From: an uncultured archaeon
GTDB taxonomy: Archaea > Asgardarchaeota > Jordiarchaeia > Jordiarchaeales > Jordiarchaeaceae
Reading direction: 5' to 3'
Assembly: GCA_964510585.1 (NCBI GenBank)
Contig: CAZECW010000139.1
Location: forward strand, 3,333 to 35,332
DNA length: 32,000 nt
Positions within the stretch are counted from its first letter, which is position 1, and each line of letters starts with the position of its first letter. A model generated the notes under the pieces. That model saw nothing but the letters and a program-made list of their open reading frames with translations. It was not told the origin of the DNA and made no database searches. The position numbers and the translations under genes were made by a program. Positions 1-22,352 of this stretch are shown in pieces.

Positions 1-418
1 CCGGATTATCCTCGTAGTCGTTTCTAATCATCCATTTTATGGCATCACTCATAGTTCTTACGTGGGTAATTATGCCTGTAGATATTGCTATGGTGTCACC
101 CTCAGGACTATAAAGGGTAAAGCACAGTTCTCCTAACTCTTGGACAATGGGGGAGGCAGATATATTCATAGATGTTTCCCGAGCACTAACTAGGGAGCCT
201 CTAATGAGCGCAAATATCCGCTCGTAAACAAGTGGGTTCTGCTCTTTATATTCTAATTTTTCTAGTCCATAGTATCTCCCCGTTTTCCGGAAGAGTTCCT
301 CGGATTCCTTCAACATTTCTTTTAGGGTTTTACCGTTCCATCCAATTTTTCTGGTTCTCGAGCCTTCTACTCCCTCAATCTCCACCAATTGTGGTTCTCT
401 AACAAAACTTGGCACCAT
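1..418 (-). CDS. acxB: Acetone carboxylase alpha subunit (hydantoinase B/oxoprolinase family), 5' part only; runs off the window start
   Basis: Not in the ORF track; translated by hand from ATG at 418: MVPSFVREPQ...GKTLKEMLKESEELFRKTGRYYGLEKLEYKEQNPLVYERIF...ARETSMNISASPIVQELGELCFTLYSPEGDTIAISTGIITHV...WMIRNDYEDNPG. This closely follows the AcxB N-terminus as I recall it (ARETAKKIAASPIVEQEGELCFTLY...STGIIIHV). The start lies 3 nt after the acxA stop. Confidence 0.9.
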   Translation of the reverse strand, partial: MVPSFVREPQLVEIEGVEGSRTRKIGWNGKTLKEMLKESEELFRKTGRYYGLEKLEYKEQNPLVYERIFALIRGSLVSARETSMNISASPIVQELGELCFTLYSPEGDTIAISTGIITHVRTMSDAIKWMIRNDYEDNP

Positions 419-421
419 TCC

Positions 422-2557
422 TCACTTCCTCCTTATGTGAAATATTCGATACTCATCTAAGTATGCGTAACAGTCTCGGGGCAGAAAGAGGGTGGTGTTG
501 GGAGATTCCACAATCGCCGTACCATTTATTACGTTTCCCGCTTTTAGTAGATCCATTTCGTACACTTCTCCGGGTGACCATTGACCCCTCCAGTAAACGT
601 CTCTCTCACCCTTAAAAGCCTCTTCAGGAGGCTTTGCACCCTTCTTTTTCTCCTTGTACAGTACTGGTTTTTTTAAGGGATACCTTCCAACCCCTATAGC
701 GTATGTTAGGTAGTAACCTGCTTCTGGAAGTTTTGCGCTTCGGGCGTAAATTTTTTCGTAGTGTTTTTCAAAGGTTTCAATTACTTTATCCATATCCTTT
801 CCTGAGAGTATCTTTTCCACGGGGGATGGAAATTCCAAGTCGGTTAGTTGACCTGCGTATTGCATTCGGACATAGGGATGGAAGGTTATTTTTCCCTTCT
901 CACAACCAGCGTCTACTAATTCTTTGAAGCATTCCTCCCTCTGAGAATCCCAGAACCCGGTGACCAGTGAACCAATAAAACTCTTAAAATCATCATTGGC
1001 ATTAGGCCAAATTGGTAGATCCGATGAGCGATCTCTTCTAGCCTCCAGATTTCCACAAGCACAGCCAAAGGCCGAAAAGGCAGCCGCCCAACTGGGAACC
1101 AATACATCCAAAAATGGAATTTCCCGAGTATAGTTTGCTGCCAGAACTGGGCCGCCCCCACCATAGGAAAGCAAAACATAGTCCACAGGTGAATAGCCTC
1201 TTCCCAATATAGCTCCGTAAACTATATCCCTCATCTGGGTCTCAAGTAACTCTACGACTCCCGCAGCAGCATCGTAAGTGTCAAGGCCCAGTTCGGATGC
1301 TACTTGTTTTTCTATCTCTCTATACGCTTTTTCCTTGTTTAGCTTTATTTCTCCGCCTAAGAAGTAGTCTGGATTCAGAACTCCCAGTACAAGCTCACAA
1401 TCGGTGATGGTAGGATACTCCACCCCGCCTTCCTCAAATGAGACTCCGATGCGATAACCAGCGCTGTCTGGACCAATCTCTACTCTCTTTGAGATTGGAT
1501 CCACTCTCACATAGCTTCCCATGCCAGCCCCTCGACTCTCTGTAGCCACCATGGGCAGATTAATCAGAAACCTGCCTATTTCTGGATTGGCTTCAATAGT
1601 GTATTCTCCGTCGGTGATTAGTCCCACATCAAAGCTCGTTCCACCAACATCAGTGCACACAATGTTTCTTAAGCCTAGGACTTCGCCCAAATATTTTCCT
1701 CCAATTATTCCGCCTATGGGACCAGAAGTCATTGAGCGAACCAACTGTTTTGTTTCTATGCTAATTGCACCCCCGTGACTTGACATGATCCGAAGTTCGA
1801 ATCTTGACCCTAGCTTTCTCAACTCCTGATCAATTTTTCTCAGTTGACTTCTTGAGCCTGCAGCTGCGTAGGCTTCTAGAGTTACCACATTCATTCTTGG
1901 AAAATCACCCCTAATAGGATGAAATTCGGAGGCTGTTATGATGGGAATATTCACCTTTCTCTCTGCCAAAACTTTTTGTGCTATTTCCTTAGCTCTGCTC
2001 TCATGAATTCCGTTCCTATAAGAAAAGAGAAAATTAATAACGATAGCCTCAACTCCCAAGTCTAATAGTTCTTTAACAGCTGATTCCACCTCGTGCTCAT
2101 AAAGTGGGATTACAATATCACCCATAACATCTATCCTCTCCCTAACTCCTCGAATGAGCTCCTCGGGTATAAGCGGCTCATTGTGAATGTGGGTGGCAGC
2201 ATGAAACCGATCCTGGTAGGAGTATCCCATATAGGTTTGTTTAGCTCTCTCCAAGCGGAAATAATGCTCCATTCCCTTCGTTACTATGGCTCCCACTTTG
2301 CTGCCTTTCCTCTCAAGAACCCTGTTGAGCATAGTGGTTCCGGAGTAGATAGCAGTTTCGAGGTTGGGAACAGTGTCTTCAGCCTTCATATCCCAGTAAC
2401 TCAAAGCATTGCTCAGCGAGGCCAAGAAACCTATAGACTCATCATAAGGGGTGCTTCGCGCCTTGCCAATGGTAAAGCGGCCTTCCTCATCTATCACTAT
2501 CGTATCAGTCATCGTGCCGCCAGCATCGATTGCCAGGACATTTGGAACCTTTACCAA
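422..2557 (-). CDS. acxA: Acetone carboxylase beta subunit (hydantoinase A/oxoprolinase family)
   Basis: 711 aa with IDAGGTMTD, YSGTTMLNRV, SGPIGG, DVGGTSFDV, GPDSAGYRIGV, LLSYGGGGP, AFSAFG and MQYAGQLTDLE motifs, collinear with AcxA; directly upstream of acxB. Confidence 0.9.
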   Translation of the reverse strand: MVKVPNVLAIDAGGTMTDTIVIDEEGRFTIGKARSTPYDESIGFLASLSNALSYWDMKAEDTVPNLETAIYSGTTMLNRVLERKGSKVGAIVTKGMEHYFRLERAKQTYMGYSYQDRFHAATHIHNEPLIPEELIRGVRERIDVMGDIVIPLYEHEVESAVKELLDLGVEAIVINFLFSYRNGIHESRAKEIAQKVLAERKVNIPIITASEFHPIRGDFPRMNVVTLEAYAAAGSRSQLRKIDQELRKLGSRFELRIMSSHGGAISIETKQLVRSMTSGPIGGIIGGKYLGEVLGLRNIVCTDVGGTSFDVGLITDGEYTIEANPEIGRFLINLPMVATESRGAGMGSYVRVDPISKRVEIGPDSAGYRIGVSFEEGGVEYPTITDCELVLGVLNPDYFLGGEIKLNKEKAYREIEKQVASELGLDTYDAAAGVVELLETQMRDIVYGAILGRGYSPVDYVLLSYGGGGPVLAANYTREIPFLDVLVPSWAAAFSAFGCACGNLEARRDRSSDLPIWPNANDDFKSFIGSLVTGFWDSQREECFKELVDAGCEKGKITFHPYVRMQYAGQLTDLEFPSPVEKILSGKDMDKVIETFEKHYEKIYARSAKLPEAGYYLTYAIGVGRYPLKKPVLYKEKKKGAKPPEEAFKGERDVYWRGQWSPGEVYEMDLLKAGNVINGTAIVESPNTTLFLPRDCYAYLDEYRIFHIRRK

Positions 2558-2943: not shown

Positions 2944-3576
2944 TTAGTAACCATTGGGCAGGGATTCTACAAATGAGTAGTCTAATTTTATGTTTTCATT
3001 TGCGTTTCCGATGACAGGTACATCGTGGCCTGGTAGGAGTATCTCAACATCCAGCTCTGTTAGTCTTTTTATTGATTTCTTAAGCTCGAGTATGTCGCCT
3101 CCAGGTATGTCTGTGCGCCCCACCCCGTAAGCAAAAATGGTGTCTCCTGAAAAAAGAATCTTTTTATCCGAATTGTATAGACAGATGCTGCCCGGGGAAT
3201 GACCTGGGGTATGGATAACTTTGAAATTCATATTCCCAAGCTGTATTATGTCTCCGTCCTTCAGTTTGACTTGAACCTCAAATCCCGCCTTTTTCTCAAT
3301 GTAGGCTGCCTCGATTTCGTGAATCATTACTTCAGCTGCACAGAAATCCACTACTTCAAGCACTCCACCAATGTGGTCTGGGTGGAAGTGAGTTATTACC
3401 AATTTTTTTATGTTCCGAGGGTCTAGGCCCAGAGATTCAATATCCTTGATGAAGTGGCTCCTGAAATCCCCGGTTAAGCCGGAATCAATTAGTGCCAGTT
3501 CACCCTTGCCAACAACGTAAACGTTTGATCCCCAGGAACGCCCAGGAATCATTGCTATTTGGTCAATTATCTCCAT
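2944..3576 (-). CDS. MBL-fold metallo-hydrolase (glyoxalase II-like)
   Basis: THFHPDHIGG, HTPGHSPGS, LFSGDT and LLPGH motifs. ATG 3576 preferred because AGGGTGA lies upstream; the track starts at GTG 3588. Confidence 0.88.
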   Translation of the reverse strand: MEIIDQIAMIPGRSWGSNVYVVGKGELALIDSGLTGDFRSHFIKDIESLGLDPRNIKKLVITHFHPDHIGGVLEVVDFCAAEVMIHEIEAAYIEKKAGFEVQVKLKDGDIIQLGNMNFKVIHTPGHSPGSICLYNSDKKILFSGDTIFAYGVGRTDIPGGDILELKKSIKRLTELDVEILLPGHDVPVIGNANENIKLDYSFVESLPNGY

Positions 3577-3756
3577 TTCAAATTTCACCCTTTTCTCGGA
3601 AGATTAACTATACAAATACCCAAATACATTTATATTTTCGCCCAGTTTGAGAATCTGGGTTTAGTGGTTTGATTTTTAAGTGCAGGGGAAATGTTATCTT
3701 TAAAGATTTTGATTATCAAATGTTATTCTACCAAAGTGTTGGAGGTTTAGTTAGTT

Positions 3757-4176
3757 ATGCCGAGTGTGGAAGAGCTTTTGGAGAAGGCTAAGGGTTTCTA
3801 TCCTAAACACCCAGACCTTATGAGGCACCTTGAGATAGGAGCGCTATGGGAGTATCATATTCGCCCCTTCACACTGGACAGCAACGATAAACTCATCTTC
3901 CACTTAACGAAGCTCTCCGAGGATGAAATCAGATTTGAACAGGGACCTGCACCAGAAAAGCCAGATTTAATACTTTATTTTACCGAGAACGCCATGGTGA
4001 AACTGGTCGATGAATCAAATGATGCTGACACCTATTATGAGAAGTATCGTGAAATACTCAAAAACCCCGACGTAGGAGTGGAACTAGACTACAAAATAAA
4101 TAAACCCCGCCTAAAACTCTTCAGAATGGGCTACAAAGAATGGGCTGAAACCTACAAGTTCCAAGCTTGGACCTAA
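3757..4176 (+). CDS. Hypothetical protein, possible SCP2 (sterol carrier/lipid-binding) fold
   Basis: 139 aa with a GGAGG RBS. The pattern LWEYHI / LIFHL / IRFEQG / KPDLILYFTENAMVKLV resembles SCP2 strands plus the 'PD-h-x-h...helix' segment. The fold call is pattern-based only. Confidence 0.6.
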   Translation: MPSVEELLEKAKGFYPKHPDLMRHLEIGALWEYHIRPFTLDSNDKLIFHLTKLSEDEIRFEQGPAPEKPDLILYFTENAMVKLVDESNDADTYYEKYREILKNPDVGVELDYKINKPRLKLFRMGYKEWAETYKFQAWT

Positions 4177-4212
4177 ACCAAAAAATTGAGGATTTACCCT
4201 GACTTAGAGCAT

Positions 4213-4706: not shown

Positions 4707-5353
4707 TTGAGTGAAGTCTTGAATAAAATTGCCAAGTCTATCGAAGAGTTGGATGGAAAAGAAGCCGAGAAATTGGTGAGGAAGGCTCTGGACGAGGGCG
4801 TTGACCCGGTTAAGATTTTGGAGGATGGAATTATAGCCGGAGTCAGAGCCATTGGAGAAAAGTTTGAAAAAAGGAGTACTTTTTAGCCGAACTTTACGAA
4901 GGCGGTGAAATAGCGGAGAAACTGGTGGAAATTGTGGGACCTAGGATACCCAAGGAGGCAGGTGGGGCACGCAAGAGAGTGGTTATTGGCACAGTGCACG
5001 GAGACCTACATGATATAGGTAAGAATCTTGTAGCTATGCAGCTTACCATGGCGGGCTTTGAAGTTAGAGATCTAGGCATAGATGTTCCCGCAATGAGATT
5101 CATCGAGGAGGCGGAGAACTTCAAAGCAGATATTATAGCTATGTCATCTCTCTTGATGGCCACAATGATGAATATGGCAGAAGTTGTGAACCTTCTAAAA
5201 GAGCTTGGCTTGAGAGACAAATACAAAGTACTGGTGGGCGGTGGACCCATAAATCCCGCTTTAGCTCAAATGTTTGGAGCAGACGGATACGCTGAGAACG
5301 CTGTGGAAGCGGTAAAGGTCGCCAAAAAGTTGGTGGGCTTAGGAGGTGCTTAA
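4707..5353 (+). pseudogene. Methyltransferase cognate corrinoid protein (MtmC/MtbC-like), interrupted by a 1-nt frameshift in an A6 run at 4867-4872
   Basis: TTG 4707 (RBS AGAGGTGG) reads MSEVLNKIAKSIEELDGKEAEKLVRKALDEGVDPVKILEDGIIAGVRAIGEKFEK (B12 cap domain) and then stops at TAG 4884-4886. The -1 frame continues KEYFLAELYEGGEIAEKLVEIVGP...GTVHGDLHDIGKNLV (DxHxxG)...SSLL...VGGG. One extra A gives a normal 215-aa protein. This could be a sequencing error rather than a true pseudogene. Confidence 0.85.
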
Positions 5354-5356
5354 AAA

Positions 5357-6727
5357 ATGGTTAGAATAAAAGACATACAGGAAAGAGCTCTAACAGGACC
5401 AGTTATGAAGGAGAGAGAATATGATAAAATGCTTTCCAAAAGGGTTCGCGAATTAGTAAAAGACTACGACATAAAATTTGACATGAACCAGATTATTCCA
5501 GATGACAGTGTGGCTGACGATGTTTTCAAAGCAGGATTCGACCTCCTAATAGACGTAGGCATCTACCATCTGGACACTAACAGGAATATAAAATTCACAG
5601 AGAACGAAATAAAAGAGATGATTAAAAGCCGTCCCAGTGAGGTAAAATTCGGAACCGGCAAAGACCAAATAACAATCAAGAATAGAAAACCCGAGGAAAA
5701 GACGAAACCAGTGATAACCACTGGAGGAGGCATTCTCAGCGAAGACATGTTCCTCCCGATAGTAAAATCCTGCGCGCAAGAACCTACATGTCAGGGAATT
5801 AACGGCTTCAGCTTAATTAGCGCATGGGGCCTAGATAACAAAACGGGAACTCCGGGGGAAATTATGTGTGCCATAGCTGAGGGATTATGGAACAGGGAAG
5901 CTGTAAAAACCGTAGGAAAACCAGGTCTTTATATAGGCTTAGCAGGGGCTAGCGCACTATCACCCGCAGGAGCCATAGCAGCCTTCCACCCTGACGGGTA
6001 CACCAAAGAAAACGCGCAGATACCCATACACCTCTTCAACGAACTCAAACTAACTTGGAGCAGATTCATACTAGCCACATATGCTCGACTAAACGGTATA
6101 GTGCCCTGGACTTCTTACGGTGCGGCCATAGGACTCCTCTTCCGAAATTCTGAGGAGGCATCTGTAGGAGCCATCGCCGCTCTGCTAGCGGAACTAGCCT
6201 ATGGGCAGGGGTCCCTCTGTATGGGCGGCGGCATGGGATCAGATGGCATGGTAATGAGAAGAGAGTCCCTAGCCTCGGGTGCTACTTGCACGTTAGCTTT
6301 GACTAATAATCTTCATGTCCCTGTGGGAGGGGTGGGCGGCGGTGGCGGTTACGCAGGACCTTGCACCGAGATGCGTGTTTACGAAATCGCAATAATAAAT
6401 CTGATGAGTGTAGCATCAGGAGCCGGCTGGCTCTGGTACAGTGGAACTCTAAGAACATTGATTAACTACTGCACTGGTATGGAGGGTAGAATAATGGGTG
6501 AAACAGCCCGCGCCATAGCTGGAATGAAAAGAGCCGACGCCAACGAATTAATAAATAAACTCTTACCCAAAATAGAAGACAAGGAAAACCCGGAAAAAGC
6601 ACCTATAGGTAAGAGCTTCATGGAATGCTATGATATCAAAACCTTAACTCCATCAAAAGAATACACAGACCTCTACGCAAGGGTAAAAAAGGAACTCATA
6701 GATTACGGCATAGAGTACGAGTACTAA
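5357..6727 (+). CDS. mtmB: Monomethylamine methyltransferase MtmB-family protein without pyrrolysine; substrate unknown
   Basis: 456 aa, uninterrupted. FNELK, AGPCTEM, TGMEGRIMGETARAIAG and APIGKSFMECYDIKTLTPSKEY match MtmB segments. There is no in-frame TAG at the Pyl site (GKPGLYIGLAG versus GRPGMGV-O-GP). It lies 3 nt after the corrinoid gene. The symbol denotes family only. Confidence 0.85.
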   Translation: MVRIKDIQERALTGPVMKEREYDKMLSKRVRELVKDYDIKFDMNQIIPDDSVADDVFKAGFDLLIDVGIYHLDTNRNIKFTENEIKEMIKSRPSEVKFGTGKDQITIKNRKPEEKTKPVITTGGGILSEDMFLPIVKSCAQEPTCQGINGFSLISAWGLDNKTGTPGEIMCAIAEGLWNREAVKTVGKPGLYIGLAGASALSPAGAIAAFHPDGYTKENAQIPIHLFNELKLTWSRFILATYARLNGIVPWTSYGAAIGLLFRNSEEASVGAIAALLAELAYGQGSLCMGGGMGSDGMVMRRESLASGATCTLALTNNLHVPVGGVGGGGGYAGPCTEMRVYEIAIINLMSVASGAGWLWYSGTLRTLINYCTGMEGRIMGETARAIAGMKRADANELINKLLPKIEDKENPEKAPIGKSFMECYDIKTLTPSKEYTDLYARVKKELIDYGIEYEY

Positions 6728-9477: not shown

Positions 9478-9501
9478 AGTTAATTTCGGAGCGTGAAATA
9501 T

Positions 9502-10452: not shown

Positions 10453-10488
10453 AAAAACAGCCGCCTTTCTTCTTTTTTGCTGTTTTTT
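10452..10488 (+). terminator. Hairpin/oligo-T terminator after BKACE paralogue 1
   Basis: AAAAAACAGC (10452-10461) and GCTGTTTTTT (10479-10488) form a perfect 10-bp inverted repeat around a pyrimidine-rich loop, immediately at the stop codon. Confidence 0.6.
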
Positions 10489-10872
10489 ATGAAAACTGTC
10501 AGTATTTAGAACAACAGTTGAAAGTCTTTTTGGAGGCGGAGGCTCTACAAACATGTCGCAATAAAAGCAAAACCCATGGTGTTCTTACCAGTTTTCCTAT
10601 TGAAGGGATTAGTCTGAAGCCCAATTAATTCCTATAAGAGTTCTCTGATGCAACCCCTAATTTTCCATACAAGCGTCTTATGAAACCATCACTCTTGCCC
10701 TGTTGATAGATTTTACAATTCGCGTAGAACAAGGGGGAAGAGATTTTCGGGTAATGCGGTGAATGATTACTTTGAGGAGCCAGCAAAAGTTCGATGCAAG
10801 GTACCAATAAATTAATATTTGTCATATTCTTCTAAAAATATGGGTTGGAAGAATTTTTGGAGGTGTGAAGAA

Positions 10873-15025: not shown

Positions 15026-15587
15026 AAAAAACACCTCCAACTCAAAGAATAAATCTATGTATTATAATCTCCAACCATCTTGGGGCTGTTAATCGTTGAA
15101 ATTAGAGAAAACCTGTTTTTCTCCACTAAGGAATACATTTTCAGTGATAATCAACATATTTATAATTTTTGGAGCAAAGAGGGACAAAATGCAGCTTCTC
15201 CACATTTGTACCGAGCAAAACTAATCCGTTGCGTATAACCGGCCAAAATGTGGGTAGTAGGAGGAAGCGAAACTTACTGACAGGCCTCATATAAATAGTT
15301 TTTTTGTCGATAGTTTTATAAAGAAAACAAATCCAGAGAAACGAAATCCAGAGCATCGTAAATATGAAGTGAAGCGTTACCCCTTTAAATGTGAGGCGTT
15401 AGTGGCTACAGTGATTCCTCCACCAAAAAATCACACGCGAAAAATGGTGACCAAAATTCGTTAAGACGCTGCGAACAGTCTTTTGATTAAACCTTAGAGT
15501 GGAGGAAAACAAAGGCGGAAGACCCAAATAAGCATTCAAACAAAGAATGGATATTTCGTACTATTCTGGATTTAAACCAACTTGGGT

Positions 15588-15667: not shown

Positions 15668-16810
15668 ATGGATAAAGAAGTAGCCATTGTGGGAGTAGCA
15701 CAAACCAAGTATGAGGAAGAAAAGGCGGATTTACCCTACTCTGAACTAGTTTTCGAAGTCGTCAAAAAACTCCACGACGAGCTGGGAATAACTAAAGACG
15801 ACGTGGGAAGCATAATAACTAGCTCCAACGATTTCAACGACGGAAGAACAATAGCCAGCATGGCCATTCAGGATGCTTTAGGAGCCGTGGGAAAATCGGA
15901 GTCCCGAGTATCGGGAGACGGAGCATTCGCCTATGTCTACGGAGTAATGAGAATACTAGAAGGAACATACGATACAGTGATGGTGGTTTCACACTGCAAG
16001 TGTTCCGAGTCAAACATTTACCTTGTAAACAATTCTATTTTTGAGCCCTACTACCAGAGATGGCTGGGACTAGACCAGGTCTCTTCGGCGGGATTAATGG
16101 CGAACATGTACTCACACAAGTATGGAATCACCCAAGAACAAGCGGCAAAAGTGGCAGTAAAAAACCGCAAAAACGCTCTAAACAATCCCTACGCACATCT
16201 ACAAAAAGCAGTTACAGTCGACGAAGTCCTAAATTCCAAAATGATGGCCTACCCCCTCAAAGAACTAGATCTACCGCCACTCTCGGACGGAGCTGTAGCA
16301 ATGCTCCTAACAAACAAAGAGAAAGCCAAAAAATATACAGACACACCAGTGTGGTTTAAGGGCCACGGCAATTGCACCGACGCCTACTACCTTGGACACC
16401 GCAACATGACCGACCTCATAGGACTAGAACTAGCAGCAAGAGAAGCCTACAAAATGGCGGGAATAAAAAACCCCATGAAGGAAATCGACGTAGCAGAAAT
16501 CTATGAAGCGTTCACCTACCACGAACTAATGAATTATGAAGCCCTAGGACTATGCAAAAAAGGCGAGGGAGGAAAACTCATCGACAGCGGACAAACAGAA
16601 ATGAACGGAACCCTCCCAGTAAACCCCTCAGGAGGCGTACTCTCAAGCAACCCCTCCATGGCCAACGGACTAGTTCGTGTAGCAGAAATCGCACTGCAAC
16701 TAATGGGCAAAGCCGAAAAAAGACAGGTGAAAGACGCCAAAATTGGACTAGCCACAGGAATGAATGGAATCTGCTCCCAAGGAAACTGCGTAATCATATT
16801 AGAAGCATGA
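15668..16810 (+). CDS. ltp4: Thiolase-fold protein lacking the catalytic Cys, Ltp4-like
   Basis: LHDELGITKDDVG, SSNDFNDGR, DVAEIYEAFTY, NPSGGVLSSNPSMANGLVRV and SQGNCVIILE parallel actinobacterial Ltp4 as I recall it. There is no CxS nucleophile (ESRVSGDGA) and no GHP His. Confidence 0.72.
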   Translation: MDKEVAIVGVAQTKYEEEKADLPYSELVFEVVKKLHDELGITKDDVGSIITSSNDFNDGRTIASMAIQDALGAVGKSESRVSGDGAFAYVYGVMRILEGTYDTVMVVSHCKCSESNIYLVNNSIFEPYYQRWLGLDQVSSAGLMANMYSHKYGITQEQAAKVAVKNRKNALNNPYAHLQKAVTVDEVLNSKMMAYPLKELDLPPLSDGAVAMLLTNKEKAKKYTDTPVWFKGHGNCTDAYYLGHRNMTDLIGLELAAREAYKMAGIKNPMKEIDVAEIYEAFTYHELMNYEALGLCKKGEGGKLIDSGQTEMNGTLPVNPSGGVLSSNPSMANGLVRVAEIALQLMGKAEKRQVKDAKIGLATGMNGICSQGNCVIILEA

Positions 16811-16829
16811 AAATGAGGAGATGAAAAAT

Positions 16830-17990
16830 ATGGTAAAACAAAAAGTAGCAATTGTGGCAACCGGCCAAACAAAACACAGAAGCCGAAGAAGAGACGTCAA
16901 CATATCCGAAATGATTTATGAAGCAGTAAAAATGGCCCTAGATGAAGCCCAACTCACACCCAAAGACATAGACGCCGTCGTTATTGGAAACATGGACCAC
17001 TTCGAAGGAATAAACTTCTCCGAAATGTGGACCGGAATAGAATCCGCACCTGGATACCTCAAACCCGTAGTAAAAGTAGCCACAGGGGGAACCACCGGAA
17101 CCTCCCTAGCAGCATACGGATACTACGCAGTAGCCTCTGGAATGTATGACAAAGTACTAGTAGTGGGATGGGAAAAAATAAACGAAGGAGGAGCCACAAC
17201 CGGAATAGTAACAGCCTTCGACGCCAGATGGGAAAGACCCGCCCTAGCCGGGGCACTAGGCCCCCTCGCTCTGATGGCTAGTATGTATATGTGGGAATTT
17301 GGAGTAACACCAGAACAAGCCGCAAAAGTAACAGTCAAAAACAGAAGAAACGCAGCAAATAATCCCTTCGCACACCTGCAACAACCCAACATGACAGTAG
17401 AAGAAGTGATGAACTCACCAGTAATATCGTGGCCCCTAAGACTCCATGATTGTTGCCCGCAGAGTGAGGGTGCTTGTGCGATTGTTTATGCGGGTGAGGG
17501 TGTGGCTAGGAAGATTAGTGATAATTTGGCGTGGGTTAAGGGTGTGGACACGGGGCACTATTATACTTATGGTGGCGATGATGTGATGCATAAGTATCCT
17601 GCGGCCAAGATTGCTTCTACCAGGCTTTACAAGAAGGTGGGTATTAGGAATCCGTTGAAGGATTTGGATGTGGCTGAGGTTTATGAGCCGAGTAGTTGGG
17701 CGGAGCTTATGTGGACTGAGGCTTTGGGTTTCTGTGAGTATGGTCAGGGTGGTAAGTTGTTGGATGAGGGTGTTACTGAGATGGGTGGTGAGTTGCCAGT
17801 GAATCCTTCGGGCGGTGTTATTGCGACGAATCCTATTGGTGCTACGGCGCTTATTCGTGTGGCTGAGGCTGCGATTCAGGTTAGGGGCCTGGGTGGTAAG
17901 CGTCAGGTTCCTGATGTGGAGTTGGCGTTGGCTCATGGTTTCGGTGGTAGTGTTTGGGCGGATCTTATGATTTTGGGTAAGGAGCCTTGA
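16830..17990 (+). CDS. ltp3: Thiolase-fold protein lacking the catalytic Cys, Ltp3-like
   Basis: TGQTK, DHFEGI, AHLQQPNMTVEEVMNS, AEVYEPSSW and NPIGATALIRVAEAAIQV parallel Ltp3. The nucleophile position reads ATGGTTG. A GAGGAG RBS favours ATG 16830; the track starts at 16821. Confidence 0.75.
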   Translation: MVKQKVAIVATGQTKHRSRRRDVNISEMIYEAVKMALDEAQLTPKDIDAVVIGNMDHFEGINFSEMWTGIESAPGYLKPVVKVATGGTTGTSLAAYGYYAVASGMYDKVLVVGWEKINEGGATTGIVTAFDARWERPALAGALGPLALMASMYMWEFGVTPEQAAKVTVKNRRNAANNPFAHLQQPNMTVEEVMNSPVISWPLRLHDCCPQSEGACAIVYAGEGVARKISDNLAWVKGVDTGHYYTYGGDDVMHKYPAAKIASTRLYKKVGIRNPLKDLDVAEVYEPSSWAELMWTEALGFCEYGQGGKLLDEGVTEMGGELPVNPSGGVIATNPIGATALIRVAEAAIQVRGLGGKRQVPDVELALAHGFGGSVWADLMILGKEP

Positions 17991-18004
17991 TTTGAGGTGA
18001 TTTT

Positions 18005-18490
18005 ATGAGTGAGAAGAAGGAAGAGCCTTTTACTATAAATTGGCTTACTGATTTGCCTTATCGTTATGCTTTGGGACCCGTTGCATCGAAGTTCTTTAGG
18101 GTGCTTAAGGAGTCTGGTAAGTTACTGGCGATTAAGTGTAGGAAGTGTGGGAAGGTGTTGTTCCCTCCGAGGTCTGTGTGTGCGGACTGTTTGGTGGAGA
18201 TGACTGTGGATGATATGGTTGAATTGAGTGGTGAGGGTTCGCTGGATGGTTTTACTGTGGTTAATTATCCTTTTGTGGATCCTAATACTGGTGAGACGAG
18301 GCCTTTTCCGTATGGTTATGGTGCGATTAAGTTGAAGGGTACAGATACTTGGATGCTGCATTTTGTCGATGAGACGGATCCTGGGAAGATTAAGCCGGGT
18401 ATGCTGGTGAAGGCGGTGATTAAGCCTAAGAATGAGCGGAAAGGTACTTTAGAGGATATACCCTACTTTAGAGCGGTTGAGAAGAAGTGA
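18005..18490 (+). CDS. DUF35 family Zn-ribbon/OB-fold protein
   Basis: CRKC...FPPRSVCADC, GxLxxFTVV and PFPYGYGAIKL motifs; GAGGTG RBS. Confidence 0.9.
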   Translation: MSEKKEEPFTINWLTDLPYRYALGPVASKFFRVLKESGKLLAIKCRKCGKVLFPPRSVCADCLVEMTVDDMVELSGEGSLDGFTVVNYPFVDPNTGETRPFPYGYGAIKLKGTDTWMLHFVDETDPGKIKPGMLVKAVIKPKNERKGTLEDIPYFRAVEKK

Positions 18491-18515
18491 GATTTCAATC
18501 TGTGGAGGTTTTGTT

Positions 18516-18956
18516 GTGAGTGAGGATAAGTATTTTCATGGTAGGATTAGGGTGCCTTATAGGCATGTTGCTGGTGCTTATGCTGGTCGGTTTATTCAGG
18601 AGATTGGCAATAATAAGAGGATTATGGGTGTGAAGTGTTCCAGATGTGGTAAAGTGTATGTTCCTCCTAGGATGGTTTGTTTTGCGTGTTTTGAGAAAAT
18701 GAAGGAATGGGTCGAAGTTGGCAAGCAAGGTACGGTTAAGGGATTTACGGTGGTTAACTATTCGACGCCAGTTATGCCGTTGAAGCCCCCCTTTGCTTAT
18801 GGGATTATTGAGTTAGATGGTTCAAATACTGGTTTTGTGCACATCATTAAGGAGGGTGACCCCAAGAAGCTGAAGGTTGGCATGCGGGTTGAGGCTGTTT
18901 TCAAGAGCAACCCAGAGGGCAACATTTTGGACATTGAATACTTCAAACCAGTATAG
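18516..18956 (+). CDS. DUF35 family Zn-ribbon/OB-fold protein, second copy
   Basis: CSRC..VYVPPRMVCFAC, GTVKGFTVV, PFAYGIIELDG and GMRVEAVF motifs; GGAGG RBS before GTG 18516 (track starts at 18477). Confidence 0.9.
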   Translation: MSEDKYFHGRIRVPYRHVAGAYAGRFIQEIGNNKRIMGVKCSRCGKVYVPPRMVCFACFEKMKEWVEVGKQGTVKGFTVVNYSTPVMPLKPPFAYGIIELDGSNTGFVHIIKEGDPKKLKVGMRVEAVFKSNPEGNILDIEYFKPV

Positions 18957-19116
18957 TATGCTTCCCCTTTTTCATTTTTTATTTAGATTTTTTGTTTTAG
19001 GGATTGTTTCCCAATTATGTTTGTTTGACGCTCTCTGCGACCAAAAATAGGGGGATTTTTTCGCCAGCAATTAGGTGTAATTTGATTCTCTTCTGAGTAG
19101 GGTAGTTTTTTCATTT

Positions 19117-19803: not shown

Positions 19804-19970
19804 TTGATTAGCTCTCCTAGACGCACGCTATTTTTATTCTTCTTTGAGTATAAAAAGTTATTTTGGGTTTGAATGAGACTGGTTTTAGAAAATTTTATAA
19901 CAATGTTTTAACCTAGATTTAGGTTAATGTGTTTCCATAAGACTACTAAAAAGGGTAGGAGTAGAGTGTT

Positions 19971-20984
19971 TTGGTTTCTAAAGGAGAAGAGATGCTAAGA
20001 GAAGATATTGAGAGGGTTCAGGAGCAGAGACTGCAGAGAGAAGTGAAGTACGCTTATAATTATTCTGAGTTTTACAGGAAAAAATTCGCTGATGCTGGGT
20101 TGAAACCTGATGACGTAAAGAGTTTGGATGATTTGTCGAGGATTCCTGTTACCTCCAAGGAGGAGGTTCTATCCAAGTTTAGTGACAGTGATCCTTTTAG
20201 TGGTCGGCTTTGTGTTCCCGTAGATAAGTTGTGGTATATAATTTTACCTCATGAAGCCACGTTGTCTGGCAGACCACTCTACACTGCATATACTTATAAT
20301 GATCGCCGGGTTCTTCTGGAACAGTTGACGCGGTTCTTCCGAATGCTTGGTGTTGGAGCTAAGGATTTAGTTATGACTTCTGGTCAATCTTGGGAGCTTA
20401 CCCCAAGAGTTCTGGAGAGCGCATTCACTATTCAAGAAACGGTTCAGGATAGGTTAGGGTTCATCAACATGCCTTTGGAGGCTTCCCTAGTTTTTATTGA
20501 TATGCCTAGAGCCATTTATCTCGGGGAGCAACTTAAACCGAGAATTTTTTTCACCCTAGTATCATACTTTGATCAGGTCACTCAGGGGATAAAGAGTCAA
20601 AAAAAGGTGCCTAAGGATGTTTTTCAGCCGGAAATAATTGTTCTAAGAGAGTTGATGGATGATATGCGGCTTACAGATGAAAAGCAAAAGGAGTACAAAA
20701 GTGAGTGGGGTAGTGAGTTTTATAGAATGTTGGACGTACAGGATACTGCTTTTCTTGCCATGGAGTGCCCTGAGCACAATGGACTACACGCATGGGAGGA
20801 CATGTTCATCATAGAGGCATTGAGTAATGGAGAACCAGTGGCTGAGGGTAAGAGAGGAAAGTTGACAATAACTAATCTCTGGTCAGAGGCTACACCAGCG
20901 ATAAGGTGGCAAACAGATTACGAAGTGACTTTGGACAAAAAGCGCTGCAAGTGTGGAGGAAACCATCTGAGAATTAAGCTATGA
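19971..20984 (+). CDS. Degenerate phenylacetate-CoA ligase (PaaK)/F390-synthetase family protein lacking the P-loop and C-terminal domain
   Basis: PaaK-like N-terminus (SEFYRKKF...DLSRIPVTSKE) and ECPEHNGLH.WED.F, GKLTITNL, CKCG motifs. The P-loop reads PHEATLSGRP, and the ORF ends right after CKCG. The start may be ATG 19992. Confidence 0.75.
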   Translation: MVSKGEEMLREDIERVQEQRLQREVKYAYNYSEFYRKKFADAGLKPDDVKSLDDLSRIPVTSKEEVLSKFSDSDPFSGRLCVPVDKLWYIILPHEATLSGRPLYTAYTYNDRRVLLEQLTRFFRMLGVGAKDLVMTSGQSWELTPRVLESAFTIQETVQDRLGFINMPLEASLVFIDMPRAIYLGEQLKPRIFFTLVSYFDQVTQGIKSQKKVPKDVFQPEIIVLRELMDDMRLTDEKQKEYKSEWGSEFYRMLDVQDTAFLAMECPEHNGLHAWEDMFIIEALSNGEPVAEGKRGKLTITNLWSEATPAIRWQTDYEVTLDKKRCKCGGNHLRIKL

Positions 20985-21002
20985 AAAAAGGGTTTAGAGT
21001 GG

Positions 21003-22352
21003 ATGTTTATGGTAGATTGGAGAAAATACTGGAACGAGCCAATTGAGACTATATCCAGAAAGGATCTAATGGAACTGCAATTTAAAAGGTTAAAGAAGCA
21101 GTTAAACAACATTTATCATAACTCCTCATATTATAGGGGAGTGATGAGAGAAAGTGGGATTTCGCCAGATGATATAAAGTCATTAGGAGATTTTACTAAA
21201 TTTCCAGTTACCTACAAGGATTCAGTGAGAGAATTGATAAATGCGGGTGACCCCTTCGGCGGCCTATTATGCGTTCCATTTGAAGACATAAAATCTATTT
21301 ATTCCACAACGGGCACTACAGGAATACCTTCAATACATGCTCAGACCAAAGAGGATCAAGAGTACAGCGCAGAGCAAACTGCTAGGCTAACTTGGATGCA
21401 GGGATTTAGGCCAGGAGATGTCCTTTTTTGGCCCCCCGTGAGATGGAACGGGTTCATCTTCGGCGTCACCCCGGGACTAGAAAGAATAGGGGTAGTATCA
21501 ATCACAAATATTTTGTATCCTTTACCCAACTATGCAGACAAAATGGTCTACGCTCTTAAACACCTTCGCCCTGACGTAATGGCAGTACCAATAGTGATAT
21601 TTGACGGGTTTCTAGAATCCTGCAAAAGACTTGGGGAAAAACCCGCTGAAATATGTGAAAGCTTGAGAGCAATTTCAATTGGTTATGGAGATGTTTTAAC
21701 AAATAGCTATCGGCAAAAGTTAATAAAGGAGGCGAGGCTAGAGCCGGAGAAGATTTTTAGTGGCGGTGGGGCAGCGGATACCATGATTCATTTGGCGGAG
21801 TGTGAAGTACGTGAGGGCACTCATATTTGCGAGGATCTTTATTTGGCTGAGATTCTAGATCTGGATACCAAGGAGCCTGTGGGGGAAAATGAAAGGGGCG
21901 AATTGATTCTATCGAATCTTTATATGAGAGGCACCCCACTTATAAGGTGGGGTAGTGAGGATATTTCCACCTTCAGTAGGGAAACTTGTAAGTGTGGTAG
22001 GACTCATGGTAGAGCAACTTGGATTGGTCGAACAGGTTTCCAGCTTAATGTTATGGGTAAATGGATTCTTCCTTTGGATGTTGATGATCTGTTTATAGAT
22101 GTGCCGGAGGCTGCGGGTACTCCCTTTACACTTTTCAAGTATAAGAAGGGCGTGATGGAGAAGCTGAAGATGAAGATGGTTTACGATGGAAGCAAAGGTT
22201 TAACCAAAGAGGAGTTCAGAGCGAAGGTTTCTGGAATTATTAAGGAGAAACTGGGTGTTGAAACCGATATTGAAATAGTGGATTCCATAGACGATTTGCC
22301 CAAAATTGCCCACAAATATAAAAGAGTTGAAGATCTCACCAAAGAAAGTTAA
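21003..22352 (+). CDS. Phenylacetate-CoA ligase (PaaK)-family adenylate-forming CoA ligase
   Basis: YSTTGTTGIP P-loop, GELILSNL, TPLIRW, CKCGRTH...IGR and terminal KYKRVEDL (A10 Lys). Substrate not determinable. Confidence 0.87.
   Translation: MFMVDWRKYWNEPIETISRKDLMELQFKRLKKQLNNIYHNSSYYRGVMRESGISPDDIKSLGDFTKFPVTYKDSVRELINAGDPFGGLLCVPFEDIKSIYSTTGTTGIPSIHAQTKEDQEYSAEQTARLTWMQGFRPGDVLFWPPVRWNGFIFGVTPGLERIGVVSITNILYPLPNYADKMVYALKHLRPDVMAVPIVIFDGFLESCKRLGEKPAEICESLRAISIGYGDVLTNSYRQKLIKEARLEPEKIFSGGGAADTMIHLAECEVREGTHICEDLYLAEILDLDTKEPVGENERGELILSNLYMRGTPLIRWGSEDISTFSRETCKCGRTHGRATWIGRTGFQLNVMGKWILPLDVDDLFIDVPEAAGTPFTLFKYKKGVMEKLKMKMVYDGSKGLTKEEFRAKVSGIIKEKLGVETDIEIVDSIDDLPKIAHKYKRVEDLTKES

Follow-up and report, generated by a model that had tools for sequence, protein, structure and literature searches.

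A candidate CoA-dependent catabolic gene set with altered catalytic residues in the Asgard genus Jordarchaeum

A pair of CoA-transferase-fold (CoT) proteins, a thiolase-fold/DUF35 tetrad and a FadH-type flavoenzyme encoded close together in an Asgard genome may act jointly in an uncharacterised CoA-dependent catabolic pathway, with a neighbouring MtmB module standing apart. This is the best explanation of the gene order and active-site residues described here, and we give it an even chance of being right. The pathway substrate would most likely be a carboxylic acid with a branched or alicyclic skeleton that blocks ordinary beta-oxidation. Two PaaK-type ligases probably belong with the same set.

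A mosaic locus

The window is the whole stretch of DNA that was analysed (32,000 nucleotides). Within 22 kb it carries a corrinoid protein with an MtmB homologue, the CoT pair, the thiolase-fold/DUF35 set, an SCP2-fold protein, the FadH-type flavoenzyme and the PaaK-type ligases (Pfam/NCBIfam):

2-418, running past the window edge, minus strand: hydantoinase B, start only (Pfam Hydantoinase_B)
422-2557, minus: hydantoinase A (Pfam Hydantoinase_A, Hydant_A_N, Hydant_A_C)
2944-3588, minus: metallo-beta-lactamase-fold hydrolase (Pfam Lactamase_B, 131 bits)
3757-4176, plus: SCP2-fold protein, 139 aa (AlphaFold model and Foldseek)
4707-5353, plus: corrinoid (B12-binding) protein, from TTG (Pfam B12-binding, 94 bits; DxHxxG present)
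5357-6727, plus: MtmB-family methyltransferase (MT1), pyrrolysine-free (Pfam MtmB, full-length, 280 bits)
7178-9175, plus: FadH/NCR-type Fe-S flavoenzyme with OYE and pyridine-nucleotide-disulphide oxidoreductase domains (Pfam Oxidored_FMN, Pyr_redox_2)
9493-10452, plus: beta-keto acid cleavage enzyme (BKACE), first (Pfam BKACE, 335 bits)
10819-11841, plus: BKACE, second (Pfam BKACE, 328 bits)
11912-12697, minus: CoT beta subunit (CoA_trans; 13-nt gap to alpha)
12711-13601, minus: CoT alpha subunit (CoA_trans)
13892-15040, minus: very divergent LplA-like gene, lipoate-protein-ligase fold (Pfam LplA-B_cat, 49 bits)
15668-16810, plus: thiolase-fold subunit a, without thiolase catalytic residues
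16821-17990, plus: thiolase-fold subunit b, without thiolase catalytic residues
18005-18490, plus: first DUF35 protein, four-Cys zinc ribbon
18477-18956, plus: second DUF35 protein, four-Cys zinc ribbon
19971-20984, plus: PaaK-type ligase, short form without C-terminal domain (NCBIfam PaaK)
21003-22352, plus: PaaK-type ligase, full-length form (NCBIfam PaaK)

All gene elements named in the initial annotation were recovered in their places (Pfam/NCBIfam; SCP2 by fold), and its suggestion of an Asgard host is borne out. Loci 90-98% identical come from Candidatus Jordarchaeia, Freyarchaeota or Jordarchaeum, and sequence identity confirms that the window belongs to the Asgard genus Jordarchaeum. 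The two tandem BKACE genes, the LplA-like gene, hydantoinase A/B and the metallo-beta-lactamase-fold hydrolase had not been named before.

The window comprises at least five transcription units in a mosaic arrangement. The modules form separate units on mixed strands with gaps of 290-1014 nt, which counts against a joint pathway, and no enoyl-CoA hydratase (ECH), acyl-CoA dehydrogenase (ACAD) or SDR gene was found in the window (Pfam/NCBIfam), though a related bacterial operon has all three. The hydantoinase A/B family takes in acetone/acetophenone carboxylases, caprolactamase and oxoprolinase; the best NCBIfam matches here are ApcC (377 bits) and CapA (355 bits), both far under cut-off, and paralogues on three other contigs show no linkage to BKACE or thiolase-fold genes. 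The 139-aa ORF has no match in Pfam or NCBIfam. Its AlphaFold model (pLDDT 94) finds nearly exclusively SCP2 proteins or SCP2-like domains among its top Foldseek PDB matches (probability 1.0, TM 0.45-0.6). It is a member of an Asgard-wide family that has no Pfam model, for every one of its 202 homologues that bears an organism name is from an Asgard archaeon; in Loki/Thor-type contigs the homologue lies immediately downstream of an aldehyde dehydrogenase gene.

Altered active sites and related enzymes

Do the CoT-fold and thiolase-fold proteins retain the catalytic residues of their families? In the CoT beta subunit, the Glu is lost, with Ala opposite Glu54 of GctB. Glu106 of the alpha subunit aligns with the IpdA Glu105 position, where PDB 6CO6 has Glu and 6COJ has Ala. 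This alpha Glu is kept in 121 of 121 close homologues; among 32 Asgard CoT pairs it is found only where the beta subunit lacks its Glu, and in none of the 14 complete pairs that retain the beta Glu. The active-site layout is of the IpdAB type, in line with the earlier comparison to IpdAB, and for IpdAB itself the loss of the beta Glu is a published argument against a transferase role (PMC5380842). In overall score, however, the alpha and beta subunits are nearer to glutaconate CoA-transferase (GctAB, 143 and 120 bits) than to IpdAB (124 and 47 bits).

The tetrad genes are tightly packed, with gaps of 10, 14 and -14 nt. Subunits a and b both lack the nucleophilic Cys, the His and Cys of HDCF and the His of GHP; they have YEAF and YEPS instead of HDCF, and NP instead of GHP. 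The loss of these residues excludes thiolase activity. In both proteins a Tyr occupies the first HDCF position, which is the catalytic-base site of the Ltp2 and Sal aldolases, where the motifs read YDHF and YDCY (PMC12329534). The pair had been labelled Ltp4-Ltp3: its non-thiolase character and the Tyr at the Ltp2/Sal base position stand, but the labels express an analogy at the level of fold rather than demonstrated orthology. In NCBIfam, thiolase-domain families give the best matches, and lipid-transfer-protein models fall below cut-off. In a tree, the two subunits fall into two strongly supported clades apart from canonical thiolases, each of which mixes members from the window, from the acidobacterial operon described below and from another Asgard family (G021). 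By analogy, we predict that the tetrad forms a retro-aldolase-like complex that cleaves C-C bonds without thiolysis.

Against PDB entries the FadH-type flavoenzyme scores highest with E. coli 2,4-dienoyl-CoA reductase, at 442 bits, followed by 2-naphthoyl-CoA reductase at 399 bits. The tandem BKACE genes share 87-89% identity; in NCBIfam both come closest to 3,5-dioxohexanoate:acetyl-CoA acetone transferase, at 367 and 361 bits (cut-off 430), and PDB 3LOT is matched at 343 bits. The two ligases score 114 and 158 bits against NCBIfam PaaK models, far under cut-off. About seven such short-plus-long pairs exist in the genome, and in one genome (G004) the pair is degraded at the corresponding locus.

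Conservation of the modules across lineages

At five loci in Acidobacteriota, a single tight operon, whose genes overlap or nearly touch, unites the CoT pair with the thiolase/DUF35 tetrad and a FadH-type OYE. The order is VOC, Amidohydro_2, ECH, thiolase-fold a and b, two DUF35, ACAD, FAD oxidoreductase, CoT alpha and beta, FadH-type OYE, TetR, ACAD, SDR, VOC, PaaK-like ligase or ScoAB-like CoT, and a fused CoT; the PaaK-type ligase is present in two of the five loci, and BKACE is absent from the operon. Identity to the window proteins is 52-55% for CoT alpha, 50-51% for CoT beta, 55-57% for subunit b, 42-44% for subunit a and 38-41% for the OYE. Because they are co-operonic in Acidobacteriota, the three modules are probably functionally linked, and their clustering is, on gene order, above chance. 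For the FadH-type enzyme the link is one of analogy and not orthology, since its closest relative is a paralogue in its own genome (contig C149, 62% identity).

Close copies of the CoT pair occur in four of 400 Asgard genomes, all Jordarchaeum (four species). More than 100 proteins are CoT homologues at 49-60% identity, and the few that bear organism names are bacterial; the pair was probably acquired from bacteria. Close relatives also adjoin class III CoA-transferases, amidohydrolases, a molybdenum hydroxylase and pyrimidine-catabolism-like genes, in neighbourhoods without thiolase-fold genes; with such different gene contexts, the family is not specific to a single pathway.

Co-occurrence of the gene set across Asgard genomes had also been raised, and the set was not found together in other Asgard genomes. 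Parts of it recur. In G021, 13 kb hold BKACE, ACAD, subunits a and b, DUF35, ACAD, SCP2 and a FadH-type OYE. In the genome under study, contig C60 carries NMO, BKACE, ECH, two DUF35, subunits b and a, ECH, a fused CoT, ADH, two Amidohydro_2 and a ligase, so that a BKACE paralogue and a BKACE homologue both adjoin thiolase-fold/DUF35 sets. Of the genome's six tetrads, two have one of the five BKACE loci no more than 5 kb away, an outcome with a probability of about 0.003 under random placement by our own rough estimate. The genome has 24 thiolase-fold genes, eight CoT pairs, six BKACE, five OYE and more than 20 PaaK-like genes, and this strong expansion of all the families makes chance adjacency more likely.

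The corrinoid protein is the cognate partner of the MtmB homologue, which starts 3 nt past it. The match of the corrinoid protein to the NCBIfam MtgC/MtbC-type corrinoid model is confined to the C-terminal domain; in this assembly a 1-nt frameshift within the A6 run at 4867-4872 interrupts the gene, with the cap-domain frame upstream, and orthologues at three of three other loci have one extra base and are intact. The MtmB homologue has no in-frame TAG (5357-6727) and no NCBIfam match; against M. barkeri MtmB (1L2Q) it scores 184 bits, with Ala opposite the Pyl residue. Its orthologues at 90-98% identity are confined to Jordarchaeum, the next relatives being 29-39% identical.

The MtmB module had been counted as part of the convergent set, a view that gene order in relatives does not sustain. 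In the sister species Jordarchaeum madagascariense it adjoins the thiolase tetrad while the reductase-BKACE-CoT block is missing, and at 37 loci in other lineages the corrinoid gene is the sole partner kept. By this comparison the module is separable from the rest of the set, and its clustering with the other modules is therefore not above chance. The LplA-like gene (28 bits against PDB LplA; 13 paralogues in this genome) stays beside the MtmB homologue in a genome without the CoT pair (G002), and in three further genomes a copy 24-26% identical is convergent to an MtmB paralogue. From these neighbourhoods it is a conserved companion of MtmB homologues in Jordarchaeales and not of the CoT pair. 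The corrinoid/MtmB pair and its LplA-like neighbour would form a separate methyl-transfer module, whose place beside the catabolic set is incidental.

A candidate pathway and its substrate

From the gene content, catalytic-residue changes and cross-domain synteny observed, we infer a series of reactions. A PaaK-type ligase would form the CoA ester, and the FadH-type enzyme would reduce or form a conjugated enoyl- or dienoyl-CoA. The Cys-less thiolase-fold heteromer, held by its DUF35 zinc-ribbon partners, could then carry out retro-aldol cleavage of a 3-hydroxyacyl-CoA, as Ltp2 and Sal do, with the Tyr of subunit b as base. The missing CoA-carrying beta Glu and the IpdA-type alpha Glu argue for the CoT pair as a hydrolase or lyase, modelled on IpdAB, that would act on CoA esters of the beta-keto or enoyl type, rather than a CoA-transferase. 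The two BKACEs may convert free beta-keto acids and acetyl-CoA to acetoacetate and a shortened acyl-CoA.

What might the substrate be? Convergence on a polycyclic or branched lipid had been proposed; the CoT, thiolase-fold and FadH-type modules are probably linked in function, and their convergence makes a hindered (branched or cyclic) acyl-CoA reasonable, but a steroid substrate is not demonstrated. The IpdAB-type layout of the CoT pair and the Ltp2/Sal-type Tyr of the thiolase-fold pair agree with the earlier proposal, and the only KstD-family gene of the genome, located elsewhere, adjoins a paralogous MtmB/corrinoid/MtrH set. However, no window protein reaches the equivalog cut-off of any steroid enzyme in NCBIfam: lipid-transfer-protein models give 114-201 bits where the cut-offs are 419-469, and the BaiCD model gives the FadH-type flavoenzyme 526 against 825. 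With the overall affinity of the CoT pair to glutaconate CoA-transferase, the varied contexts of its relatives and the massive paralogy of every family, a steroid is an improbable substrate.

Part of the gene set behind the preferred reading, a joint pathway for a hindered carboxylic acid, has a conserved and unstudied operon counterpart in soil bacteria. Jordarchaeum itself has adjacent enzymes that lack the catalytic residues normal for their families and resemble the unusual bond-breaking enzymes that bacteria apply to steroids.

Gene content of the region

There is good evidence that the window encodes a linked, non-canonical C–C-cleaving pathway for a hindered acyl-CoA, acquired in part from bacteria; its substrate may be a steroid, a terpenoid, a branched isoprenoid acid or a reduced aromatic. 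The source genome, G000, comprises 3.78 Mb in 217 contigs, and the window corresponds to G000:C139:3333-35332. The initial annotation had placed it in a probable Asgard archaeon, and this is confirmed by the titles of loci with 90-98% identical MtmB homologues, which read Candidatus Jordarchaeia, Freyarchaeota or Jordarchaeum madagascariense. The MAGs of Jordarchaeum come from hot-spring sediments. Pfam and NCBIfam scans gave the following gene map.

Genes of the region (window coordinates, strand)
2-2557, minus: hydantoinase B/A
2944-3588, minus: MBL hydrolase
3757-4176, plus: 139-aa ORF with no Pfam match
4707-5353, plus: corrinoid protein
5357-6727, plus: MtmB homologue
7178-9175, plus: FadH-type OYE/Fe-S flavoenzyme
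9493-10452 and 10819-11841, plus: two genes for beta-keto acid cleavage enzymes (BKACE)
11912-12697 and 12711-13601, minus: CoA_trans beta and alpha (the CoT pair)
13892-15040, minus: LplA-like gene
15668-16810 and 16821-17990, plus: two thiolase-fold genes (subunits a and b)
18005-18490 and 18477-18956, plus: two DUF35 genes, forming a tetrad with the thiolase-fold genes
19971-20984 and 21003-22352, plus: two PaaK-like ligases

Past 22.5 kb the genes are ordinary (an SPFH protein, aspartate kinase, homoserine dehydrogenase and threonine synthase). Tight coupling is confined to four groups: the corrinoid and MtmB genes (3 nt apart), CoT alpha and beta (13 nt), the tetrad (10, 14 and -14 nt) and the ligase pair (18 nt). 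The remaining intergenic gaps measure 290-1014 nt.

The flavoenzyme is closest to E. coli 2,4-dienoyl-CoA reductase (FadH), its best PDB match, and then to 2-naphthoyl-CoA reductase. Its score with the NCBIfam BaiCD model, 526 bits, is below the cut-off of 825, and mycofactocin OYE_2 and bilirubin reductase give similar scores. Pairs of a short PaaK-like ligase, lacking the C-terminal domain, and a long one occur about seven times in the genome (contigs C196, C82, C150, C67, C195 and C70); the pair of the window locus (19971-22352) survives only as fragments in G004, a genome of the same genus. Many of the genus-level matches in the genome search bear one in-frame TAA, TGA or TAG.

The 139-aa ORF had been read as an SCP2-like protein. 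A predicted model of high confidence (pLDDT 94) has as its best PDB matches almost exclusively SCP2 proteins and SCP2-like domains, so the assignment stands at the level of the fold. Recognition needed a fold search, as BLASTP against the Pfam-positive SCP2 protein of another archaeal genome, G021, found no match. No Pfam model describes the family, which is spread across Asgard; all homologues bearing organism names are Asgard archaea. In two other lineages the gene is preceded, at a distance of 5-11 nt, by an aldehyde dehydrogenase gene and not by a methyltransferase gene (L096 6001-6441; L097 6001-6414).

Active sites of the CoT pair and the thiolase-fold subunits

Is the CoT pair a CoA-transferase? 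Both adjacent genes match Pfam CoA_trans, and IpdA/IpdB and GctA/GctB are among their PDB matches. GctAB of Acidaminococcus fermentans (PDB 1POI) is the best match overall, with 143 bits for alpha and 120 for beta against 124 and 47 for IpdAB, which argues against orthology with IpdAB; the homologues likewise carry the database name "glutaconate CoA-transferase". However, the beta subunit has Ala at Glu54 of GctB and lacks an ESG or EAG motif. A single Glu-to-Ala difference between the IpdA structures 6CO6 (wild type) and 6COJ (variant) was used to locate the position of interest in alpha; in alignments, window Glu106 pairs with the Glu changed in 6COJ, where GctA has Gln. We take this Glu to be the catalytic Glu105 of IpdA. 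Because the Glu54 of GctB is replaced by Ala and the Gln of GctA by Glu106, transferase function is unlikely. In IpdB of RHA1 the equivalent of Glu54 is Gly57, and the missing Glu was used to argue against a transferase role of IpdAB (PMC5380842).

IpdAB of Mycobacterium tuberculosis and Rhodococcus jostii (PDB 6CO6, 6CO9 and 6CON; PMC5380842) is a hydrolase that cleaves ring C of cholesterol. It shares with the window pair the class I CoA-transferase-fold heterodimer, the absence of the beta Glu and the presence of the alpha Glu. The likeness of the Glu-less pair to IpdAB drawn in the initial annotation is therefore upheld by the residues and weakened by the higher GctAB scores: judged by both, the pair has an IpdAB-type residue layout and is not an IpdAB orthologue. 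Unlike IpdAB, it has no KstR2-type neighbourhood, its close relatives lie in several unrelated contexts, and a hydrolase of this type would be a candidate activity only. Genes of the HIP pathway (fadD3, ipdC, ipdF, echA20, fadE30-33 and kstR2) were not found in the window; an acidobacterial operon with an orthologous CoT pair, described below, holds ECH, ACAD, SDR and TetR genes.

The same residue pattern is found in other pairs. The beta Glu is absent from four of the eight CoT pairs in G000; three of these four have the alpha Glu, in place of which Asn or His is found in the four canonical pairs. Across 32 Asgard CoT pairs the alpha Glu occurs exclusively where the beta Glu is absent, a count in which independence is overstated because the pairs are related. 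The alpha Glu is retained, within a (W/F)EC(D)E motif, by all 121 closest homologues of CoT alpha; none of their beta partners examined has the transferase Glu.

Where did the pair come from? CoT alpha has more than 1200 homologues, and the best 120 are 49-60% identical; few of these carry names, and those named are all bacterial, from Terriglobales, Acidobacteria and Chloroflexota. Among 400 Asgard genomes, a close copy is present in four Jordarchaeum species only. Such close bacterial relatives, together with this narrow Asgard distribution, suggest that the pair was acquired from bacteria. Other contexts of CoT homologues contain class III CoA-transferases, amidohydrolases, a molybdenum hydroxylase and pyrimidine-like genes, and as these contexts differ, the family is not bound to a single substrate.

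In the thiolase-fold subunits, the nucleophilic Cys of the 7YVY and 6HSJ thiolases is replaced by Val (subunit a) and Gly (subunit b), the HDCF motif by YEAF and YEPS, respectively, and the His of GHP by Asn. The Tyr in the first motif position is conserved in all b-type paralogues; the third is occupied by Ala or Pro and has neither the His nor the Cys of the known motifs. The second catalytic residue is Cys304 (in YDCY) in Sal and Tyr344 in Ltp2. Each of the two DUF35 genes directly downstream combines zf-ChsH2 and OB_ChsH2_C (Pfam) and has four Cys. Of the 24 thiolase-fold genes in the genome, 15 are non-canonical in this way, among them six a-b pairs that are each accompanied by two DUF35 genes. 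Actinobacterial Ltp3/Ltp4 likewise comprise two different thiolase-fold subunits encoded side by side. In a maximum-likelihood tree, canonical thiolases stand apart from two strongly supported clades, a and b, each of which holds window, other Asgard and acidobacterial members.

Ltp2-ChsH2(DUF35) (PDB 6OK1) and Sal-Shy(DUF35) (PDB 9MYR; PMC12329534) resemble the window proteins in the Cys-less SCP2-thiolase fold, the motif-first Tyr and the DUF35 zinc-ribbon partners. In Ltp2 (YDHF) and Sal (YDCY) this first-position Tyr is the catalytic base (PMC12329534). The window differs from both in its motifs and in its DUF35 proteins, which are free-standing and not fused to a hydratase. The initial annotation had labelled the tetrad Ltp4-Ltp3-DUF35-DUF35, and the Cys-less fold, the Tyr and the two DUF35 genes agree with that label. 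By contrast, lipid-transfer-protein models (PRK07937, PRK08256, PRK06059 and PRK07855) score 114-201 bits against cut-offs of 419-469, and the top NCBIfam models are thiolase-domain families, PRK08313 giving 286 and 381 bits against 514. Orthology with Ltp3/Ltp4 is thus unsupported. Ltp2 itself scores 89-97 bits, compared with 131-177 for true thiolases and the Cys-less 4YZO.

Linked and separable modules

Which of these genes belong together? In five of nine inspected contexts of CoT homologues (L089, L090, L093, L098 and L099) the same tight operon of about 18 genes was found, for which a literature search returned no description. Its hosts are Acidobacteriota, the named records being Terriglobales and Acidobacteria MAGs, and in two loci it is preceded by a TonB-dependent receptor. 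The order is VOC, Amidohydro_2, ECH, thiolase-fold a and b, two DUF35 genes, ACAD, FAD oxidoreductase, CoT alpha and beta, FadH-type OYE, TetR, ACAD, SDR, VOC, a PaaK-like ligase or ScoAB-like CoT, and a fused CoT. The operon thus shares with the window an orthologous CoT pair, an orthologous tetrad and a FadH-type enzyme, as well as a PaaK-type ligase in two loci, at identities of 55-57% for subunit b, 42-44% for subunit a, 52-55% for CoT alpha, 50-51% for CoT beta and 38-41% for the OYE. Its CoT and thiolase-fold proteins have the same residue peculiarities. Unlike the window, it is one co-directional unit and adds ECH, two ACADs, SDR, two VOCs, Amidohydro_2, FAD oxidoreductase and TetR; BKACE, MtmB/corrinoid and hydantoinase genes are absent from it. 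Because their counterparts are co-operonic in Acidobacteriota, the CoT pair, the tetrad and a FadH-type enzyme probably act in one pathway, and this shared operon is the strongest evidence for it.

NCBIfam scans of ten operon genes returned generic names, none of them an equivalog-level name indicating a substrate. The VOCs resemble methylmalonyl-CoA epimerase (101 bits against 115), and there is a weak CrtI/HpnE-family match; both would be compatible with methyl-branched or isoprenoid-derived acids and are non-diagnostic.

Within the genus, G004 carries the entire window arrangement apart from the lost ligases. G002 (Jordarchaeum madagascariense, about 90% identity) has kept the SCP2-like, corrinoid, MtmB and LplA-like genes and the tetrad, and lacks the reductase-BKACE-BKACE-CoT block, while G005, a complete genome, has none of these copies. 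The expected co-occurrence of the gene set across Asgard was accordingly not found, as the set is absent from other Asgard genomes and even from G005. Partial assemblages do occur: a cluster in G021 contains BKACE, tetrad, ACADs, an SCP2 protein and a FadH-type gene, and one on contig C60 of G000 contains BKACE, ECH, tetrad, fused CoT, ADH, Amidohydro_2, NMO and a ligase. G021 also has the classical archaeal trio of thiolase, DUF35 and HMG-CoA-synthase-like genes (L022 825-3521); the distance from this trio is about 2 kb to a BKACE gene and about 5 kb to the BKACE/ACAD/Cys-less-thiolase cluster.

The corrinoid protein and pyrrolysine (Pyl)-free MtmB homologue were correctly recognized at the outset. 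The homologue belongs to the MtmB family, is full length without a TAG codon, carries Ala at the site that is pyrrolysine in M. barkeri MtmB, and adjoins the corrinoid gene, which in this assembly (TTG 4707 to 5353) is split by a 1-base frameshift at an A6 run (4867-4872). The orthologues in three related genomes have one extra base at this run and are intact; the frameshift is either an assembly error or a genuine inactivation. EmtA and AbeA are Pyl-free MtmB homologues that act on steroids, EmtAB and AbeABC being corrinoid-dependent steroid A-ring methyltransferases (10.1101/714501; PMC11912376), the latter partnered by a 3-ketosteroid-1-dehydrogenase (PMC11912376). MtqBC, whose methyltransferase is an MtmB-family MT1, acts on tetramethylammonium and choline (PMC13044021). 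All three systems resemble the window in the Pyl-free MtmB-family MT1 gene adjoining a corrinoid gene. In contrast to the Abe system, the window holds no MT2, activase or KstD gene in Pfam and NCBIfam scans, and orthologues of its MtmB homologue are confined to one genus, the nearest other relatives being 29-39% identical. A pattern-based scan of species genomes, which is blind to distant relatives, found no Denitratisoma or Sterolibacterium locus.

The MtmB homologues of 37 loci in other lineages (Actinomycetota, Dehalococcoidia, Bathyarchaeia, Hadarchaeota, other Asgard lineages and more) are accompanied only by corrinoid proteins, and in Jordarchaeales by the LplA-like gene too; none of the 37 loci outside the genus has a thiolase, CoT or BKACE gene beside the MtmB homologue. 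The MtmB module is thus separable. The convergence of modules proposed in the initial annotation therefore probably holds for the CoT pair, tetrad and FadH-type gene, which the operon links, and is unsupported for the MtmB module, as both G002 and the 37 loci indicate. The very divergent LplA-like gene (13892-15040, minus strand) keeps its convergent orientation to MtmB homologues throughout Jordarchaeales, including loci that have no CoT pair (L011-L013, L019, L035 and L046). LplA-like paralogues number 13 in the genome; besides the window gene, at least one (C32) is found about 3 kb away from a corrinoid gene.

The BKACE genes (9493-11841) form a tandem duplicate encoding 87-89% identical proteins, and a separate upstream region of about 320-370 nt precedes each copy. 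Both are full-length DUF849/BKACE TIM-barrels (Pfam 335 and 328 bits over 1-274 of 274). The closest NCBIfam model for both is 3,5-dioxohexanoate:acetyl-CoA transferase (NF053538), a triacetate-cleaving enzyme of phloroglucinol degradation, at 361-367 bits, short of the 430-bit cut-off. Another family member with the full-length domain is Kce (PDB 2Y7D), which acts in lysine fermentation, and the best structural relative is the uncharacterised 3LOT. The CoT pair as an acetoacetate CoA-transferase serving BKACE is ruled out by the absent beta Glu; BKACE-adjacent CoT pairs in G009 and G016 are canonical and retain it. In G009 a similar BKACE-BKACE arrangement faces such a Glu-containing pair. 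Catabolism of carnitine or another quaternary amine by BKACE and MtmB was dropped, since the triacetate model scored best, no betaine transporter or MT2 was found, and the modules are separable.

Candidate substrates

A search of the genome for ketosteroid dehydrogenases, which the initial annotation had called for, found one KstD-family gene, outside the window and below cut-off (451 bits against 789 for the 3-ketosteroid-delta-1-dehydrogenase model); the 14 control genomes of the search include no steroid degrader. This single-copy gene lies on contig C208 with genes for a corrinoid protein and MtrH (MT2), and the set is probably head to head with an MtmB paralogue at the start of contig C212 (G000:C208:212-3578 and G000:C212:3-1052; also L035, L036 and L046). 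The module genes are contiguous in G006-G008 and G002, and the module is conserved in Jordarchaeales. The C212 paralogue is Pyl-free and 36% identical to the window MtmB homologue. An 82%-identical Jordarchaeales orthologue of the KstD gene scores about 451 bits also with 4-oxocyclohexanecarboxylate dehydrogenase, a non-steroid enzyme. By gene content, the module, which lies outside the window, resembles the Abe system: its component set is that proposed for AbeABC and KstD in anaerobic estrogenesis.

Could the window modules be functionally unrelated, and adjacent merely because paralogous catabolic genes are abundant? Their families are massively paralogous in the genome, the block content varies within the genus (G002 without reductase-BKACE-CoT, G004 without the ligases, G005 with none), and gaps are long and strands mixed; the union of CoT and thiolase/DUF35 orthologues and a FadH-type gene in one tight operon of several Acidobacteriota, and a BKACE/tetrad/FadH association repeated in another Asgard family, make this very unlikely. 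The opposite reading, that of the initial annotation, takes the whole 22 kb with the MtmB module as a single island through which a steroid, hopanoid or other polycyclic terpenoid would be degraded anaerobically. C-methyl transfer would proceed as with EmtA/AbeA, a ring would be opened as by IpdAB and the side chain cleaved as by Ltp3/4, with a ring reductase like BaiCD and an SCP2 protein as lipid carrier. The statements there on EmtA as a Pyl-free MtmB homologue and on IpdAB in steroid ring opening are correct (10.1101/714501; PMC5380842). Several observations agree with such an island: the IpdAB-type residues of the CoT pair, the Cys-less thiolase-fold pair with its aldolase-type Tyr, the confirmed SCP2 fold, the steroid-acting Pyl-free homologues EmtA and AbeA, the only KstD gene of the genome with corrinoid protein and MtrH, probably adjoining an MtmB paralogue, and the epimerase-like VOCs, TetR, ACADs, ECH and SDR of the operon, which recall the KstR2 regulon. 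Nevertheless, a steroid substrate is not borne out at any equivalog threshold, the lipid-transfer-protein, BaiCD and KstD models all falling well below. GctAB outscores IpdAB, the MtmB module is separable, with the corrinoid partner alone retained in the 37 loci, and G005 and other Asgard genomes lack the gene set. Moreover, KstD relatives use simple cyclohexanones; the KstD-like gene scores equally with 4-oxocyclohexanecarboxylate dehydrogenase; the SCP2-fold family is Asgard-wide and found elsewhere behind aldehyde dehydrogenase; and tetramethylammonium and choline are also MtmB-family MT1 substrates (PMC13044021). We consider such an island highly improbable. There is also little chance that Jordarchaeum degrades a polycyclic isoprenoid, with steroid-, hopanoid- or similar rings, without oxygen by means of the KstD-type module and the window genes together. 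In that scheme, KstD-like, Pyl-free MtmB-type, corrinoid and MtrH proteins would remove an angular methyl group and feed it to the Wood-Ljungdahl pathway, in the manner of AbeABC of Phosphitispora, and the IpdAB-type hydrolase, thiolase-fold/DUF35 lyase, FadH-type reductase and BKACEs would then open the rings and remove branched side chains.

Two non-polycyclic substrates were also weighed. For plant-derived aromatic acids (methoxylated phenylpropanoids, polyphenols), MtmB/corrinoid would demethylate, PaaK-type ligases activate aryl acids and the FadH/NCR-type enzyme reduce a cinnamoyl-type bond or the aryl-CoA ring; non-oxidative shortening of the side chain would fall to a hydratase and the thiolase-fold lyase, opening of the reduced ring to the CoT-fold hydrolase and splitting of triacetate-like beta-keto acids to the BKACEs. 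The phloroglucinol-pathway model heading the BKACE matches, 2-naphthoyl-CoA reductase as second-best PDB match of the flavoenzyme and ligases of the phenylacetate-CoA ligase family all fit, as does an operon of peat and soil Terriglobales, behind a TonB-dependent receptor in two loci, that contains Amidohydro_2, a family including aromatic-acid decarboxylases and lactonases. On the other hand, the literature on characterised MtmB-family enzymes shows no O-demethylase (10.1101/714501; PMC13044021; PMC11912376), phloroglucinol reductase, cyclohydrolase and benzoyl-CoA-type reductase were not seen in the window, and the BKACE scores are under cut-off; aromatic acids are an unlikely substrate. A bypass for beta-methyl-branched, isoprenoid-type acyl chains is quite unlikely. 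It would run from hydration through thiolase-fold retro-aldol cleavage to a methyl ketone, then by ATP-dependent carboxylation with hydantoinase A/B, in the manner of acetone carboxylase, to a beta-keto acid that BKACE would cleave with acetyl-CoA. All three enzyme types lie inside 19 kb, BKACE repeatedly adjoins thiolase-fold tetrads, and the epimerase-like operon VOCs suit methyl-branched CoA esters; but the window has no hydratase, and the hydantoinase score with carboxylase models is very low (377 bits against a cut-off of 1500). Nor is a link of hydantoinase A/B to BKACE or thiolase-fold genes supported elsewhere: its loci on C131, C52 and C46 are not near such genes, and the bacterial operon and the G021 and C60 loci are without it.

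What would a linked pathway for a hindered acyl-CoA mean? Were a relative of the eukaryotic ancestor to use a steroid or hopanoid, this would be of wide interest, though such a substrate goes beyond the present evidence. If the linked pathway is real, a CoA-transferase fold turned hydrolase and a thiolase fold turned aldolase would not be actinobacterial specialities; both enzymes would be parts of a widespread, unstudied pathway of soil Acidobacteriota and an Asgard archaeon, where it probably arrived by transfer. The bacterial operon offers a culturable proxy in which to search for the substrate. In current metabolic reconstructions of Asgard archaea, the heavily expanded genes annotated as "glutaconate CoA-transferase" and "acetyl-CoA acetyltransferase" are assigned to the hydroxyglutarate pathway and beta-oxidation, and the real roles of these genes would become a testable target.
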